From Oscillospiraceae bacterium (GTDB lineage: Bacteria; Bacillota; Clostridia; Oscillospirales; CAG-272), in the NCBI GenBank assembly GCA_015063795.1, contig SVTL01000015.1, forward strand, positions 1-53,125: a stretch of DNA of 53,125 bases, in the 5' to 3' direction. The notes beneath the pieces were generated by a model, which worked only from the letters and a program-made list of their open reading frames with translations, did no database searches and was not told where the DNA came from. Within the stretch, counting starts at the first letter, position 1, and every line of letters starts with the position of its first letter. A program made the position numbers and the translations under genes. Of the stretch, positions 25,086 through 30,084 are shown piece after piece.

Positions 25086-25177
25086 AGCGGTGCGCGCGGA
25101 TCAAAAGGACGTTTTGAATGAAACAGGTCTTTCCTATTCTCAGGAAGAACAGCATCCACGGACACAAATACCAAAAA

Positions 25178-26101
25178 TCAATCCATATTACAGACCAAGC
25201 TGTGCTCCACTTCCGATGTATATTTTCTTCCTAAAATATAGTTGATGGATTCCTCCGCTATTTTGTCTGTTGAATAGTCAACGCTTAACACCTTTACGAT
25301 GACATTCTTCAGCACAGAAAGGTTGTCAAATCCCGCGATCTGCACATTTTCGGGATACCCCAAATGCTTCAAAGCTTGAAGCGTATAGTAATCGGTCGCG
25401 CAAATAATCGCCCCGTCATTTGAAAGATCTTCAACATTTGTAACAATGCGATGGCTTTTCCCCAGTGTTCTCATTGCTTGAACAAAGCCGTTCAGCCTCA
25501 TACGCTGTGCGTTGATTGCATGCAGCGGTTTGTTCAAAACGGGAGCAAAATACTGAACATCCCCGGACGGTATCTTCTCGGCAATCGTTTTCGACAAATC
25601 GTACATTGCTTTCTCATCGTCTATCCCAACAAACGGCAGATCAAACAGTCTGTTTCCAATCAAAACGATTGGCTTTTTTAACGAGGTCAGATAATTTTTG
25701 TATTCCTCGTTATCACTGCCCACCGAAAACAAAACGATGCCATCCACGCCGATATAATCAAAATAGTCCAATGCCTTTTTTTCGTTTTTTTCATCTTTTT
25801 CCGAAAACTGAAAGATGATAGAATATCCGAGATTTCTTGCCGCCTTGACCAAACTCATCGCAAGCTTTGAAAAATATTCATTGTAAAGATCAAAAAGAAC
25901 AACACCGATCAGCATCGAGTTCGCTTGATCACCCATTTGAACATTCGGACGGTAATCGTATTCTTTTGCAACTTCAAGAATTCGTGCTTGAGTTTCGGGA
26001 TTGATCCCTTTCCTGTTATGAAGCGCACGGTCCACCGTTCCCTGAGAGACACCGCAAATTCTTGCAAGCTGTGTTGTTGTTATTTTGGAAAAACGTTTCA
26101 T
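25178..26101 (-). CDS. LacI-family transcriptional regulator
   Basis: N-terminal HTH (TTTQLARICGVSQGTVDRALHN) plus a periplasmic-binding-protein-like sugar domain. Overlaps the GH116 stop by 4 nt, suggesting an operon. Confidence 0.85.
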   Translation of the reverse strand: MKRFSKITTTQLARICGVSQGTVDRALHNRKGINPETQARILEVAKEYDYRPNVQMGDQANSMLIGVVLFDLYNEYFSKLAMSLVKAARNLGYSIIFQFSEKDEKNEKKALDYFDYIGVDGIVLFSVGSDNEEYKNYLTSLKKPIVLIGNRLFDLPFVGIDDEKAMYDLSKTIAEKIPSGDVQYFAPVLNKPLHAINAQRMRLNGFVQAMRTLGKSHRIVTNVEDLSNDGAIICATDYYTLQALKHLGYPENVQIAGFDNLSVLKNVIVKVLSVDYSTDKIAEESINYILGRKYTSEVEHSLVCNMD

Positions 26102-28605
26102 TGCAGCTTCAGCTCCTCATGTATTTCAACAGGATCGAAAACGATACAACCGTTAGCAACCTGAAAATCGATGTTTTCTCCGTCAACGGTAACATTTGTG
26201 ATCTGATCGGCGCCGGGTATGGCAATGGAATTCAATACCAAAGCCTTGCCAAAGACAGAAAGAATACACCGCTTCTCATAAAACGCAACACGCCCCCAAC
26301 TGTCACAAGCACTGAACAGATATGTTCCGCTGTTTTGAACAGGAGAAAAGCCGATATGCTTCTTCGTCATATCAAAGTGAAAGCCGCTGTATATGGGCAT
26401 CAAAGCATACGATGCCATCGAACGCGCATAATTGCTTCCGCATTCGATCTCATTCCAAGGATTTCGCTTTTCCCCGTCATACCGATCACGAACCGCTTTG
26501 ACGATGGTTTCGCCCTCGTCAACATAACCATGAGATATCATAAGCCCTGCAAGAGCATATTCAAAGCCTGTCATCGTTTCCTCACAGTAAGGGATCGGTA
26601 TCGCAGGGACCTTGGCACCTTCAGGATATGAGCAGATGATCGTTCCCGCCTCATCGTTCAGCGAGAAATTGCGCCACAGGTTTACAACGTTTCGCATGGA
26701 GGGCTTATAGTTGTTTTGATAAAGATTTTCAAGCGCGTTTTTTTTCTTTTCAAGATCAAAAACACCTTTTCGGCCAATCAGCACAGCATGCCAATCCGCC
26801 AGCATTTGGTCGATCATACAGCCGTCCGCAATCTGGTATTTGATCTCCTTTGCTTCTTCGTTCCAATATTTCTGAACGGCATCATAGCGTTCAAGAATGG
26901 ATTTGTCCGAAAGATCAATGAATTGATGGAAATATCTTCCATTGAAAAGATGCTCGTTCATAAATGCTTTGCCTTTTTCATAAAGCGTTGCGTAAAGGCT
27001 TGCCCGCTTTTCATCGCCAAGAGACCTTGCCATATCGGCACCGCAATCGAGCGCAAGCAGATAAAAGCCCTGAAGCCACGAGCTCGGTCCGAAAAGTTCC
27101 ATATCGAGCGTGTGATGCTGACGTCCCTCGAGAACGCCATCCATATCCGCATCCCACTTATCCGGATTTTCCTCTGACCACGCGTATTCAAGCATTTTGA
27201 AAATGCTCTCTGAATGCTTTTTCAGCCATTCGTTATCGCCTGAAAATTTCCATTCCCGATAGCACTTCAAAACCTCTCCCATCTGTCCGTCTACACAGGC
27301 GCGCTCCGTATACATCTCTCTTTTCAAGGGAAGATTGATGCGGAAGCTCGTAGCACCGCTGTCAAGAAGCGCATACTTCAGCGTATTTTCACGGATGGAA
27401 CGTTCAAGCCTTGGGAACAGATACGGCAGTGCATACGCATAATTCCAAACATGCTGACAGGTCCCGGAGCAGGAGCCGATGGTTTCACCGCAACCCTCCC
27501 ACCCCCAAAACGAGCCATCCTCAAGCCTGAGCACGGTAGGGGACTTGAGAACCGAAAGGTTTGCCGAGATCGCATCCTTGACCGATGCGGGAAGTGTGCA
27601 GGATTGTAAGGTTTTCGCAAACAACTCGGTTTTCCCGCCGAGCCAATCAAAATGTTTAAGCGCATACATGGCTGTCTCAAAGGAAGTTTGAAACTGTGTT
27701 GCGTAATAATTTCGCCACGTGGTACATTCCTCGTTACGCGGCTTCCAGTAGTTATAAGCAACCGGGACATTCCAAGCAATCACAAAACAAACCTTCGCTT
27801 TCGCGCCGGCAGGTATATTCACATACGAAACAACGGTGCCATGATCTCTCTTTGACGGCTCTGAATACCTTCTTTCCGGCATACGGTCTAAGCCGGAAAA
27901 CTGTTTCCAATAGGTGGTACAGCCGTCCATCCAGCCCCCTCTGTACCAATATTCCTGAGCAGAGCTGTCCTTATGATCGGTAAGAACACAAAGATCGAAA
28001 TATCCTTTTTCTTTATCATTCAAGTCGGCGCTTTTTAAGAAAATGCCGCTTACATCCCCCTCTTTTATGGCTTTGTTCAAAGAAGAGGCAGCAGGATTGC
28101 ATACCGTGCAGGCAAGCGAAAAGCGTATGGGTTCATCGGTTATGTTTTCTATTTCCCATTCAAAAAATGCCGACGGAAGACTTGAATGAAAGTCATCATG
28201 CGGTATCAGCGGATTAAAGGCACAAAGGCGTACAACGGCCGGGAAATCCTCGTCGGTGAACGAGAGCTTCGCTATCGGGAAACTGCCGTCAAAGGTCACG
28301 TTTTTGAAATGCGGAAGCCCGGCAAGCGAGTTTGCGCGCGGACCGTAACCAAATCCAACATGGCTACGGCTTAAGCACGGTATGCCCATGAGGTTTTCGA
28401 CAGTATCGCCGTGTAAAACTTTAGCAATATTCTTATTTGAATAGGAGGCCTTAATGGCGAAATGAGAGTATCCGTTTCGCGTGCATTTGCTTGGACGGTT
28501 AAAGATTTCCCAATCCTTCAACTCTCCGTTTCCTGCAAGACCAATGCAGCCTGTTCCAATGCCTCCGAGAGGAAAAGAAATGTTTTTTTTGCCTTGATAG
28601 ATCAT
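26098..28605 (-). CDS. Glycoside hydrolase family 116 (GBA2-type beta-glucosidase/glucosylceramidase-like), 835 aa
   Basis: N-terminal FPLGGIGTGCIGL motif and overall length typical of GH116. Start MIYQG with SD GGAGG. The 51-aa upstream track extension has no SD. Confidence 0.85.
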   Translation of the reverse strand: MIYQGKKNISFPLGGIGTGCIGLAGNGELKDWEIFNRPSKCTRNGYSHFAIKASYSNKNIAKVLHGDTVENLMGIPCLSRSHVGFGYGPRANSLAGLPHFKNVTFDGSFPIAKLSFTDEDFPAVVRLCAFNPLIPHDDFHSSLPSAFFEWEIENITDEPIRFSLACTVCNPAASSLNKAIKEGDVSGIFLKSADLNDKEKGYFDLCVLTDHKDSSAQEYWYRGGWMDGCTTYWKQFSGLDRMPERRYSEPSKRDHGTVVSYVNIPAGAKAKVCFVIAWNVPVAYNYWKPRNEECTTWRNYYATQFQTSFETAMYALKHFDWLGGKTELFAKTLQSCTLPASVKDAISANLSVLKSPTVLRLEDGSFWGWEGCGETIGSCSGTCQHVWNYAYALPYLFPRLERSIRENTLKYALLDSGATSFRINLPLKREMYTERACVDGQMGEVLKCYREWKFSGDNEWLKKHSESIFKMLEYAWSEENPDKWDADMDGVLEGRQHHTLDMELFGPSSWLQGFYLLALDCGADMARSLGDEKRASLYATLYEKGKAFMNEHLFNGRYFHQFIDLSDKSILERYDAVQKYWNEEAKEIKYQIADGCMIDQMLADWHAVLIGRKGVFDLEKKKNALENLYQNNYKPSMRNVVNLWRNFSLNDEAGTIICSYPEGAKVPAIPIPYCEETMTGFEYALAGLMISHGYVDEGETIVKAVRDRYDGEKRNPWNEIECGSNYARSMASYALMPIYSGFHFDMTKKHIGFSPVQNSGTYLFSACDSWGRVAFYEKRCILSVFGKALVLNSIAIPGADQITNVTVDGENIDFQVANGCIVFDPVEIHEELKLQ

Positions 28606-28647
28606 AACTGCCTCCAAAAAAAGATTCTTCGCCTTTATTTTATAATA

Positions 28648-28687
28648 AAAAAAACGCCGTGTCCACTTACACGGCATAATTTTTTTG
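28648..28687. terminator. Bidirectional hairpin terminator (A-run, gccgtg/cacggc, T-run)
   Basis: AAAAAAAA, hairpin gccgtgtccacttacacggc, then TTTTTTT. Confidence 0.6.
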
Positions 28688-28825
28688 AAAAACCATCGAT
28701 TGAACAAACCATGTATCGTTGCGCATATAATCCACTGTCTTCGGATGGATTGTATCATAAAAGCTCAATGTTTACACATAAAAATGAAGCACACGCTGCT
28801 CTCGCAGGAAGCGAAACGATTTTTT

Positions 28826-28943
28826 GCTCTTCTCTTTTCTCAAAAAACGACAATTTGAGAGAAGAGAGAAAATCGAAAAAGTGAAAAGAGAAAAGAACAA
28901 AAAGAAACGACAATCTTCAATTGAAAATTGTCGTTTCTTTTGG
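28826..28943. repeat. Structured direct repeat, copy 1: CT-tract, aacgacaattt, GA-tract, then a perfect 11-bp hairpin gaaacgacaat/attgtcgtttc and a T-run
   Basis: About 85 % identical to copy 2 at 29753-29889. The hairpin at 28904-28937 plus TTTT acts as the terminator of the upstream minus-strand mini-operon. Confidence 0.8.
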
Positions 28944-29006
28944 CTGTGGGCTACGAAAAAGACATTTTCGGCATTTTTGCGTATGACTTCGAACTCTCAC
29001 CGTTCA

Positions 29007-29336
29007 TTAGTTAGTATTTTTGCTGTTGTTAATATGGTTTCCATTTTTATCCCTATTTATAGGAACGGCGGTAAGGGAAAATTGCATGCAATGGCACGGA
29101 CAAGGAATTTCTATTTTATATTTATCTTTTGCACCTCTGTATGTAAAATCGCCGCCACATCTAACCACCTCACACCAAGTATAAATTTCCGCCATAGCTC
29201 GAGGGCAGAAACTTTGAGGCGTTTCGTATTCAAAATGAAAAACGTCTCCCTTTTCTAATCCAAGTCTGCAATTCTTTGCCTCTCCTTCAATTACTTCTAC
29301 ATCAAAAGCCCAATCTTCAACAATCCATTTGTTCAT
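29007..29336 (-). CDS. Small Cys-rich protein, TIGR04076-like (109 aa)
   Basis: Conserved-looking FCPRAMAEIY...GGDF...IPCPCHC Cys pattern. Overlaps the upstream gene by 4 nt (ATGA). The family assignment is from memory only. Confidence 0.5.
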   Translation of the reverse strand: MNKWIVEDWAFDVEVIEGEAKNCRLGLEKGDVFHFEYETPQSFCPRAMAEIYTWCEVVRCGGDFTYRGAKDKYKIEIPCPCHCMQFSLTAVPINRDKNGNHINNSKNTN

Positions 29337-29683
29337 TTGCCGTTCTCCTTTGCAGTATTCAAGGATGCAACAAGCATTCTCTTGATTTCTTCAGCAAGCG
29401 AGAGTAAGCTATCAAAATTATAATTCATAAGCTTTGTGTTTTTAAGAAGTTTCAACCAATAAATACTTTCTCCTGTTTCCTTAAGTGAAATATGAAGCTT
29501 TGATATAAAATCCGCTTTGCTGTTACCGTAAACTGCTTCGTTTATGTTTGCACCTATGCTTGTTGCAGAGCGAAGTAATTGTTTGGCGATAGTTGTATCT
29601 TTTTTTGATTTGGAAAACTCTTCATAAAACAATACGATTTATGTTGCAAAATCGAGAGATTTATCGAGCAAAGGACTGTTCAT
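29333..29683 (-). pseudogene. Four-helix-bundle (23S rRNA IVS / Avd-like) protein gene with an in-frame TAA at codon 15
   Basis: ATG at 29683 with SD GAGGTG. It reads MNSPLLDKSLDFAT-TAA-IVLFYEEFSKSKKDTTIAKQLLRSATSIGANINEA in one continuous frame, with the stop at 29639-29641. This matches the family consensus ...DKSFDFALRIIKLY...LSKQLLRSGTSIGANI. Confidence 0.6.
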
Positions 29684-29703
29684 TCGTCATCACCTCTGAT
29701 TGA

Positions 29704-29732
29704 ATTATACCACAAATTATTATATAATTCAA
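29704..29732 (-). promoter_or_regulatory. Promoter TTGAAT-17-TATAAT for the four-helix-bundle/TIGR04076 mini-operon
   Basis: Read on the minus strand, about 20 nt upstream of the SD. A 7-bp inverted repeat gctttgc-gaa-gcaaagc lies immediately upstream. Confidence 0.55.
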
Positions 29733-29752
29733 CGCTTTGCGAAGCAAAGCTA

Positions 29753-29889
29753 CCTTTTCTCTTCTCTTTTCTCTCTTATCTTTTCTCTGGAAACGACAAT
29801 TTGAGAGAAGAGAGAAAAGTGAAAAGATAAAAGTGAAGAGACCAAAAAGAAACGACAATCTTCTGTCGAAAATTGTCGTTTCTTTTTGG
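29753..29889. repeat. Structured direct repeat, copy 2, immediately 3' of tRNA-Ser; its hairpin and T-run is the tRNA terminator
   Basis: CT-tract, aacgacaattt, GA-tract, then hairpin gaaacgacaat-cttctgtcgaaa-attgtcgtttc at 29849-29882, flanked by an A-run and a T-run. Adjoins the tRNA 3' end. Confidence 0.8.
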
Positions 29890-29977
29890 CGGAGAAGGAG
29901 AGATTCGAACTCTCGCGCCGCTTTCGCGACCTACGCCCTTAGCAGGGGCGCCTCTTCACCAACTTGAGTACTTCTCC
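29887..29977 (-). tRNA. tRNA-Ser (anticodon GCT), class II, CCA encoded
   Basis: Minus strand reads GGAGAAG-TA-CTC-AAGTTGGTGAA-GAG-G-CGCCC-CTGCTAA-GGGCG-[19-nt variable arm]-GAGAG-TTCGAAT-CTCTC-CTTCTCC-G-CCA. Perfect 7-bp acceptor stem. 91 nt. Confidence 0.9.
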
Positions 29978-30016: not shown

Positions 30017-30044
30017 AGTATATCACAAATCCCTGCGTTTTGCA
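30017..30044 (-). promoter_or_regulatory. Promoter TTGCAA-17-TATACT for tRNA-Ser
   Basis: On the minus strand. The -10 box ends about 35 nt before the tRNA 5' end. Confidence 0.55.
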
Positions 30045-30084
30045 ATAGGACAATTATGAATAATATGTTAATATTGAAGAAGAG

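Follow-up and report, generated by a model that had tools for sequence, protein, structure and literature searches.

The contig SVTL01000015.1 of an Oscillospiraceae bacterium (assembly GCA_015063795.1), of which 53,125 nucleotides were analyzed here (the window), carries a small operon that lies between two copies of a structured repeat, directly behind a gene for tRNA-Ser(GCT). The original prediction, made from the letters of the window, took this operon for a module of about 930 bp that was inserted into, or had recombined via, a duplicated tRNA terminator. Which of these parts belong together, and how could they have come to lie behind a tRNA gene? We conclude that the locus is likely to represent one unit of a family of cassettes situated in tRNA tails, together with the relic of a second unit. 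The units seem to belong to a widespread and apparently undescribed family, made up of small cassettes, from gut Clostridia; a full-text search of the literature returned no description of tRNA-tail units, the coverage of this search being no proof of novelty. Coordinates are those of the window throughout, the cassette and tRNA-Ser lie on the minus strand, and L numbers designate comparison loci or contigs.

Reading along the minus strand, we observed the gene for HprK with its terminator, a promoter-like site, tRNA-Ser(GCT), three hairpins (HP1, HP2 and HP3), a promoter, a gene for a four-helix-bundle (4HB) protein and a TIGR04076-like gene, referred to here as the cargo. The cargo is followed by 66 nt of noncoding DNA ending in ...GTAGCCCACAGCCA, by AAA and a second HP1, by a shortened HP2 and, about 210 nt further on, by a GH116 gene. 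The direct repeat, predicted to measure about 120 bp at about 85% identity, was recovered at 28821-28940 (left copy) and 29755-29886 (right copy), with 83-88% identity over 120-135 nt and a spacing of 945-946 bp. The 11-mer GAAACGACAAT was indeed present six times across the two repeat sites, allowing up to one mismatch, as expected from the claim of three occurrences per copy; the first one in the left copy reads AAAACGACAAT, with one mismatch. Elsewhere in the 53 kb, we found a single unrelated one-mismatch match to this 11-mer (1.3 expected), and none of 100 shuffles reached 7. Both copies fold into a terminator-like hairpin and a long pyrimidine/purine hairpin, with z scores of -7.4 and -5.4 compared to shuffled sequences, in agreement with the structured nature ascribed to the repeat. 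The two copies differ by mismatches of every type, indels among them, without adenine specificity, and both are noncoding.

The right copy begins at the base immediately past the CCA of tRNA-Ser, as had been claimed, and this encoded CCA (29889-29887) constitutes the left junction of the inserted unit. The arms of the HP1 stem (GAAACGACAATTTTC and GAAGATTGTCGTTTC) include one G.U pair. HP1 is the predicted terminator of the tRNA-Ser transcript, of the bidirectional type, since it combines a stem-loop and a T-run at the end of a transcription unit. A terminator scan called the full HP1 stem in the left copy and the inner 6-bp part alone in the right copy, where the full stem rests on the fold. 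HP2 is a helix of about 30 bp that could act as an RNase III substrate, and its loop holds the third copy of the 11-mer (29790-29800 on the plus strand), repeating the 3' strand of HP1. The predicted TTGAAT-17-TATAAT promoter was found on the minus strand, with a TG extension of its -10 box. This promoter is palindromic in the window and scored on both strands (29700-29735). The predicted plus-strand promoter would yield an antisense RNA of about 150 nt covering HP3, HP2 and HP1 and ending at the HP1 T-run; it is not conserved in L017 or L066.

In the left copy, HP1 is intact (28900-28940), with its loop changed to AATT, and the purine arm of HP2 is shortened. HP3, the promoter and the 4HB gene are absent from this solo module, and nothing recognizable of the remaining unit was found downstream. 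To judge from these remains, the left copy is probably the relic of an earlier unit and now closes the cassette operon as its terminator; it is the next hairpin downstream of the operon and has the form of a terminator, consistent with the role assigned to it originally. It occupies the place where the earlier terminator of the tRNA gene would be expected. A reading of the left copy as a complete degenerate mini-unit was unsupported past HP1 and HP2. With two units placed head to tail, the direct repeat is therefore not a target duplication.

The boundaries of the unit were defined by comparing elements. L046, behind a transfer-messenger RNA (tmRNA) gene, and L066, behind a tRNA-Gln gene of another genome, are unrelated upstream and match over about 210 nt with two mismatches, starting at CCA/AAAAG. 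Thus, the 5' boundary is fixed. The homology between the window and L038 (behind tRNA-Leu) or L013 likewise starts at CCA/AAAAG and ends in ...AGCCA or AGACA, and the same boundaries were observed in 12 further elements. Moreover, elements of different genomes that share a cargo diverge right past ...MCA into unrelated terminators made of an A-run, a hairpin and a T-run. They have in common a 3' motif of about 60 nt, (G)AGAGTTCGAAkTCATACGCAAA..AAAATATCTTTTTYGTAGCCCAYAGMCA, that ends in (A/C)CA. This motif, which can be written (G)GTTCRAATC...AAAATATCTTTTT...MCA, is found once in the window and, in at least 16 other units with unrelated cargo, at their distal ends. The unit ends read AAAAGAAACG... 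at the 5' side and ...GCCCAYAGMCA at the 3' side. In the window, the unit extends from the first A past the tRNA CCA to the terminal ...CACAGCCA. The insert is self-contained, as predicted, and has a GC content of about 36%, compared to 55-62% in its flanks. Its size is 946 bp (28941-29886) instead of about 930 bp, and it ends in the 3' motif, which had not been noticed.

Unit lengths range from 250 to 1134 bp. Two gene-less 279-bp copies (L073 and L110) have the same internal structure and lie behind tRNA-Ser(TGA) and tRNA-Ser(GCT) genes in different genomes. Neither terminal inverted repeats nor a target-site duplication nor end-to-end complementarity was found in the units compared. The terminal NMCA does not track the discriminator base of the tRNA in 12 elements, and a search for a tRNA-like fold of the 3' motif yielded no conserved structure. 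An 11-mer, TTCGAACTCTC, is common to the start of the 3' motif (28988-28998) and the T arm of tRNA-Ser (29904-29914). In other units, the motif opens with a T-loop-like box (GGTTCRAATC), without conserved T-arm pairing.

The distribution of the HP1-HP2 module was investigated by scanning one genome per species for the pattern GAAACGACAAT-N(4-30)-ATTGTCGTTTC. At least 119 stretches matched, compared to about 1 to 2 expected by chance; 10 of them are unrelated and at least 109 are related. Among the 109 related matches listed, to which the following counts refer, the third 11-mer was found at a constant distance in about 75, indicating that the whole two-hairpin module is conserved. The carriers are almost all metagenome-assembled genomes (MAGs) from the gut labeled Clostridia, Oscillospiraceae, Acutalibacteraceae or Eubacteriales, and two are labeled as the Lachnospiraceae species Butyrivibrio crossotus and Agathobacter rectalis; several MAGs carry two or three copies. 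Most copies (97/109) follow CCA, and 82 follow a recognizable T-arm...CCA. ARAGORN called a tRNA next to 74 copies, with identities covering 13 amino acids (Ser, Leu, Val, Gln, Tyr, Pro, Arg, Ala, Met, Thr, Gly, His and Glu), and two copies adjoin tmRNA genes. Since 55 of 56 other tRNA genes in carrier genomes also encode CCA, these data do not discriminate whether the CCA stems from the element or from the tRNA gene. Many dispersed copies thus exist, a result that the original prediction would have taken as the sign of a generic repeat, but about 90% of those listed lie at tRNA or tmRNA 3' ends and not at unrelated intergenic sites. At 31 listed loci, a 4HB gene follows about 200 nt past the module, accompanied by HP3, the same promoter and the same ribosome-binding site. 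The proposal that the two copies are halves of one event at a duplicated terminator did not survive this comparison, since the right copy is the element's own 5' end and is contiguous with the 4HB gene in about 30 genomes.

We observed several signs of constraint on the noncoding part of the unit. The G.U pair of HP1 lies on the tRNA strand (as a C.A mismatch on the other strand) in 70 of 72 copies, and U.G is kept in 37 of 39 aligned copies. This placement fits an RNA role of HP1 in terminating the tRNA transcript. HP1 conservation as such cannot be scored fairly, since the HP1 pattern was used to find the copies. The arms of HP2 vary between genomes yet stay complementary, and HP3 shows compensatory changes from C-G to U-A in five sequences and from UU/AA to CC/GG in two. 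The position of the unit promoter is conserved in other elements, and between HP3 and the ATG the noncoding sequence shows 71% identity, compared to 56% at third codon positions (106 pairs).

Rfam, run on the region and on 14 loci, reported tRNA, tmRNA and riboswitches alone and nothing for the module, and BLAST of the region against plasmids and phages returned tRNA matches, one weak 4HB hit and nothing else. A scan of IMG/VR gave eight matches (L213-L220), all of them predicted prophage ends in which about 9 nt of a tRNA or tmRNA 3' end (TCTCCACCA) precede HP1. These prophage ends correspond to integrase-type att sites beside a resident module, and L085 and L042 are similar, with 23-nt tRNA-Ser and tmRNA fragments. 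A phage-borne element was rejected, all IMG/VR matches being prophage ends beside HP1. Four pattern matches fall in unrelated phyla (L025, L051, L068 and L096, from Anaerolineae, Cobetia, Methylobacterium and Thermoflexus) and have the 11-mer as an outer stem that encloses a GC-rich inner palindrome; they are probably due to chance, though slightly above expectation. A second conserved terminator family, AAAAAGCAYCGAC...GTCGGTGCTTTTTTCAATGAA, occupies the tRNA 3' flanks of L020, L066, L106, L118 and L044, and tRNA tails in these bacteria seem to be generally occupied by conserved modules. In L093 (1-676), we noticed that about 130 nt of a CCA-ending RNA, together with the module and the promoter, are duplicated in tandem; ARAGORN and Rfam gave no call at this place.

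The Avd-like 4HB gene of the original prediction was recognized by PF05635 (75.3 bits; cut-off, 33.8), by TIGR02436 (87.5 bits, or 96.8 with the N terminus restored; cut-off, 24) and by comparison with PDB entry 2RLD (E = 1.9e-23). Its assignment thus stands, but its frame is interrupted by an in-frame TAA at codon 15 (29639-29641). The same TAA is present in L001, L004 and L130, and codon 15 is CAA (Gln) in L005 and L009. Since CAA is found in other strains of the same species, the TAA is a recent, segregating nonsense polymorphism. A 99-amino-acid open reading frame (ORF) restarts at a TTG (29632) past the nonsense codon; as read from its frame, the window copy is thus either a recent pseudogene or the source of an N-terminally truncated product. 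The 4HB gene of other units encodes 115-116 amino acids and is under strong purifying selection, with a median ratio of nonsynonymous to synonymous divergence (dN/dS) of 0.054 at a dS of about 0.9. Moreover, at least 120 protein clusters (90% identity) match one 4HB variant at 89-97%, and most of them come from contigs too short for assembly. Purifying selection is observed even though nearly identical 4HB proteins lie beside unrelated cargo, which indicates that 4HB serves the unit and not one cargo. A role as cognate antitoxin is therefore argued against.

In the window, the 4HB gene and the cargo overlap by ATGA at 29333-29336, as predicted, with the ATG of the cargo overlapping the stop codon of the 4HB gene. 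The end of the 4HB gene (...AAGGAGAAnnnnAAATGA) supplies the ribosome-binding site and the start codon of the next gene, and the cargo ORF starts at the ATGA overlap in 17 of 26 elements. By this arrangement, the two genes of the unit are predicted to be translationally coupled. The window cargo reached TIGR04076 with a borderline 34.9 bits (cut-off, 33), and one homologue bears the same name in a JGI annotation; no match was obtained in Pfam, PDB or PADLOC. TIGR04076-like cargo is also found in L013, in L038 (tRNA-Leu), in L253 (tRNA-Cys) and in the tRNA-Ala array of L251. Other elements carry different cargo, namely three unrelated GNATs, T5orf172/MUG113, an AAA_18 P-loop protein, YunG, TPR and unknowns. 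The T5orf172/MUG113 cargo matches the PADLOC candidate defense family PDC-S57 (E = 1e-86). In L003 (1-143), a different 4HB allele, about half identical by eye, is joined at the ATGA-type junction to the same cargo. Downstream of that junction, the cargo and its flank are 99.3% identical, and the breakpoint lies about 35 nt before the 4HB stop (about 29370 in the window). This hybrid therefore points to exchange by recombination in conserved parts, near the 3' end of the 4HB gene.

Head-to-tail junctions in which the 3' motif, ...MCA, is followed directly by the A-run and HP1 were also observed in L112, L044, L014 and L037. L253, retrieved via cargo homology, consists of a tRNA-Cys CCA, a variant HP1, an internally deleted 4HB gene, cargo, a variant 3' motif and a terminator. 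The same route led to an array in L251 (4613-15000), in which at least six co-oriented single-gene units extend over about 10 kb behind tRNA-Ala(CGC), at 36-42% GC compared to 45-55% in the flanks. These units are without a 4HB gene. They encode a methyltransferase, a 114-amino-acid protein, HTH_3, a 174-amino-acid protein, GrpB and a TIGR04076-like protein, with further small genes, one of them APH-like. Five units end in the 3' motif, and three of these are followed 10-25 nt on by the next unit, opening with a terminator hairpin of one family. A diverged copy of the tRNA-Ala terminator recurs past unit 6, similarly to the terminator repeat that brackets the cassette in the window. A second 4HB family was found in L118 (6380-7480, minus strand), in the order tRNA-Tyr CCA, terminator, three repeats of about 220 nt, promoter, divergent 4HB gene and overlapping cargo. 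The tandem repeats of L118 consist of small tetraloop hairpins spaced by ATGATGT, and related hairpin arrays with other spacer words are present in L044 (GTGAAAT), L059 (GTGAAGTT) and L106 (TTTAGCT).

Several observations weigh against reading the locus as part of a mobile family. The cassette is fixed in the window species: each contig found by exact look-ups of the HprK, GH116 and cargo proteins carries it or breaks inside it. The original prediction had proposed to look for cassette-free relatives, and none were found. A search for an empty site via metagenome relatives of HprK reached at most 78% identity, with tRNA-Ser synteny lacking, and gave no empty/filled pair. Exact 4HB variants keep one fixed context over many samples and, given also a dS of about 0.9, movement would be rare or ancient. 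Mobility is accordingly deduced from the distribution of the units and was not observed. About 10% of the modules listed lie without a recognizable tRNA end adjoining, and the evidence comes mostly from MAGs and short metagenome contigs. Ascertainment by the HP1 pattern could partly bias both the conservation of HP1 and its association with tRNA; this worry is reduced because retrieval by cargo homology, which is independent of the hairpin pattern, found the same architecture behind tRNA-Cys. Finally, we found no catalyst of insertion. Transposase, integrase and reverse-transcriptase domains were absent from ten cargo proteins searched with Pfam and from the precomputed Pfam annotation of neighbors, and no recombinase was seen within about 6 kb in the window or within 20 kb of the L251 array. 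Where the 4HB gene is missing, a listing of the first ORFs downstream, inspected visually and not by domain search, contained a single IS3-like fragment and nothing else of this kind.

For the cassette reading that we favor, the following sequence of events can be proposed. The first unit would have been inserted directly past the CCA of tRNA-Ser(GCT), ahead of the sequence that formerly came next. HP1 would act as a replacement terminator for the tRNA, and HP2 and HP3 would shield the cassette from strong tRNA transcription. The unit would further supply its own sigma-70 promoter, the 4HB gene, a coupled and exchangeable cargo and a 3' motif ending in CCA. The partners joined would be the junction of CCA, A-run and terminator hairpin behind the tRNA and the joined ends of the element (...MCA and A-run-HP1), each of which shows the order CA, A-run and hairpin. 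That such units are inserted by site-specific recombination at the DNA level, with the enzyme provided in trans, is a tentative proposal that may well be wrong. New units would enter beside the tRNA, since the distal unit appears to be the decayed one. We infer that 4HB is a nucleic-acid-binding accessory or regulator of the element that reads GAAACGACAAT in its three copies. These three 11-mers, or family-specific heptamer arrays elsewhere, would be the putative binding sites, for which the unit's own 4HB is the most economical candidate reader. Cargo would be exchanged by recombination in the conserved flanks. A broader class of gene capture can also be imagined, in which enzyme-less units are set serially at CCA tails, guided by structure or RNA, with 4HB as the specificity or accessory subunit and with S23p ORFs, Avd and the cassettes as one lineage directed at stable-RNA genes; we think this rather unlikely.

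The alternative closest to the original prediction is a single event via the repeat, in which a circular cassette with one module recombined with a resident module, by homologous recombination or with HP1 as a lox/FRT-like site, so that the two copies would be attL and attR. The module does bracket the cassette in the window, the terminator copy past unit 6 in L251 is comparable, and HP1, with two inverted 12-mers flanking an 8-bp spacer and a further arm copy close by, is arranged like the core site of a tyrosine recombinase. We nevertheless regard this route as improbable, since the majority of full elements contain one module alone and border on unrelated terminators at ...MCA, so that a resident module is not needed. 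Moreover, the copies differ in the central spacer (GACA versus AATT) and by 12-17% overall, the left copy is without HP3 and the end of the purine arm, and the 3' motif separates the cargo from the left copy, in the same place that it takes in single-module elements.

In an RNA-mediated route, the unit would be copied by a reverse transcriptase acting in trans, for which the Avd-like 4HB protein would be the cofactor, and the cDNA would be joined to the CCA 3' end of a tRNA or tmRNA and fixed by recombination. Neurospora retroplasmids integrate beside tRNA sequences by such a priming or template-switching route. This would explain why the junction lies exactly past CCA for any tRNA identity and for tmRNA, the common feature being an RNA 3' end and not a DNA sequence; the 3' end of the unit is also CCA or ACA, and the sole conserved protein belongs to the family of Avd, the cofactor of the reverse transcriptase of diversity-generating retroelements (DGRs). 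This route seems to us a long shot, since no reverse transcriptase was seen in or near any unit examined, and, with the promoter lying downstream of HP1 to HP3, transcription would have to read through from the tRNA to produce a full-length RNA. Furthermore, the 3' motif shows no conserved tRNA-like fold, and poly-A or untemplated tracts were not observed.

A third alternative denies mobility: the module would be a constrained terminator of Oscillospirales tRNA operons, the 4HB operon would be vertically inherited, and selection and gene conversion would account for the similarity. The dS of about 0.9 between elements, the contexts that are stable within species and the other tRNA terminators of these MAGs, which also form conserved families, are compatible with this. 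It is very improbable, however, given that a complete, sharp-ended unit is found behind different tRNAs or tmRNA, or stacked in arrays; that the gene-less 279-bp copy sits at two different tRNA-Ser genes; that the insert has 36% GC in a host of 55-62%; and that two modules with two differences over about 210 nt lie at different RNA genes of different genomes. Scarcely credible, finally, is an ordinary integrase-type island, or a repeat of the repetitive extragenic palindrome (REP) or miniature inverted-repeat transposable element (MITE) kind with an unrelated resident operon caught between copies, because despite the adjacent tRNA, the hairpin-rich repeats and the IMG/VR prophage ends beside HP1, the repeat holds no tRNA sequence, no integrase, terminal inverted repeat or target-site duplication is present, the 53 kb contain two copies alone, and, in about 30 genomes, the promoter-4HB unit physically includes the right copy.

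We then compared the cassette family preferred here with known systems. The ORFs of 23S rRNA intervening sequences (IVSs) and the DGR cofactor Avd both belong to the PF05635/TIGR02436 family. The IVS of Coxiella carries GACAGAT heptamer repeats upstream of its S23p ORF, and mobility of 23S IVSs is suspected, with no enzyme known (PMC4990558). Similarly to the cassette, the 23S IVSs of Coxiella, Leptospira, Xanthomonas and others are AT-rich selfish inserts of small size that lie at a stable-RNA gene and encode a PF05635/TIGR02436 ORF. Both have a long stem and short repeats upstream of an ORF that is prone to decay, as with the TAA observed here. In contrast to an IVS, the cassette lies past the CCA of a tRNA or tmRNA, has its own promoter and terminator, exchangeable cargo and a 3' motif, and forms arrays; no rRNA was found in the region, and the unit ends are not complementary. 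By analogy, the 4HB-encoding IVS "selfish elements" would be the closest in kind among known elements.

In its way of working, the system would most resemble an integron cassette array with a tRNA tail as the platform. Integron cassettes, too, form co-oriented arrays of mostly single genes, each with a conserved closing site of about 60 nt and exchangeable cargo on a constant platform, and part of the cargo has an integron flavor (GNAT, APH-like, methyltransferase and small unknowns). Unlike integron cassettes, each unit comes with a promoter and a terminator hairpin, any tRNA or tmRNA 3' end serves as landing pad, and the hosts are Clostridia. We found no IntI with an attI platform nearby and no attC site of R and L boxes with a GTTRRRY core, and the 3' motif is without a conserved fold. 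Islands and prophages at tRNA or tmRNA genes share with the units the 3' side of the gene as locus and a GC content below that of the host. They differ in that the units are inserted past the CCA and not in the gene, duplicate no part of the tRNA, are not restricted to a single tRNA and measure 0.25-1.1 kb; no integrase was found, and the repeat contains no tRNA sequence.

The 4HB protein has the same fold as the DGR protein Avd and belongs with it to PF05635. A DGR was rejected, there being no adjacent reverse transcriptase, no pair of template and variable repeats and no adenine-specific mismatches, in repeats that are noncoding. For DDE-type insertion sequences (ISs) and their MITEs, the units lack terminal inverted repeats and a target-site duplication. 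For REPs and bacterial interspersed mosaic elements (BIMEs), the two copies in the 53 kb are both at this locus, and the copies listed elsewhere mostly follow CCA (97/109). MITEs derived from IS200/IS605, REP/BIME sequences and class C group II introns have neither target-site duplications nor terminal inverted repeats, possess structured ends, lie beside stem-loops and include non-autonomous copies mobilized in trans. Unlike such hairpin-guided elements, the unit ends are without matching hairpins, and no TnpA or RAYT partner was found. As for class C group II introns, units of 250 nt are far too small for a ribozyme, and about 90% of the copies are tied to CCA ends.

The coordinates of the features are given in Table 1. 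The neighboring genes encode HprK, GH116, LacI, a GntR-type aminotransferase, the S component of an ECF transporter and MutY. Downstream of the array (25100-28800), the genes of the LacI family and of GH116 have 40-50% GC, compared to 55-62% in the flanks, and may also be acquired DNA; we rejected them as the cargo of an older unit, since no unit-type 3' motif lies at their end. An apparent cassette polymorphism downstream of P0128 was traced to an intragenic tandem repeat that varies. Such a variable-number tandem repeat (CAGGGCCGGGCGCAAGGCGAAA), located in a gene downstream of the unit in L257 (about 1050-1400) and also in L253-L256, alters the ORF length from strain to strain and is unrelated to the cassettes.

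Table 1. Features of the tRNA-Ser locus in the window, with the evidence for each
Feature	Position	Strand	Evidence
tRNA-Ser(GCT)	29887..29977	-	ARAGORN; Rfam tRNA, 56.6 bits
tRNA-Ser promoter-like site, TTGCAA-17-TATACT with TG	30017..30045	-	Consensus scan alone
Likely complete tRNA-tail cassette unit, 946 bp, about 36% GC	28941..29886	-	Homology with L038 and L013; GC profile
HP1 of the unit (A-run, 15-bp stem, loop GACA, T-run)	29845..29886	-	Repeats, terminator scan, fold
HP2, long hairpin of pyrimidine arm and purine arm	29755..29841	-	Inverted repeats I2 and I3; fold
HP3, GCTTTGC-TTCG-GCAAAGC	29734..29750	-	Alignment, compensatory changes
Unit promoter, sigma-70 type, TTGAAT-17-TATAAT with TG extension	29704..29732	-	Consensus scan
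4HB gene, 23S rRNA IVS protein/TIGR02436 family	29333..29683	-	ORF list, Pfam, NCBIfam, PDB
Cargo gene, TIGR04076-like, Cys-rich, 109 amino acids	29007..29336	-	ORF list, NCBIfam
Conserved 3' motif of the unit, GAGAGTTCGAAG...AAAATGTCTTTTTCGTAGCCCACAGCCA	28941..29006	-	Comparison of units
Solo module (left copy)	28821..28940	-	Repeats, terminator scan, fold; 85-88% identical to modules elsewhere

If the cassette reading is true, gut Clostridia (Oscillospiraceae, Acutalibacteraceae and relatives) would hold an abundant and overlooked system for the storage and exchange of accessory genes behind their tRNA genes, with cargo that ranges from acetyltransferases and kinase-like proteins to at least one candidate anti-phage gene. 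For annotation, it would explain the contig breaks at these loci and would mean that the "terminator" behind many tRNAs belongs to an element. Insertion would occur at a precise point, whatever the identity of the tRNA, and would leave the tRNA unharmed; an enzyme recognizing this point would be interesting for its mechanism and for applications such as safe-harbor insertion. Moreover, the S23p 4HB family would gain a testable role, as the sole conserved product of the cassettes, which is under purifying selection and adjoins family-specific repeats.

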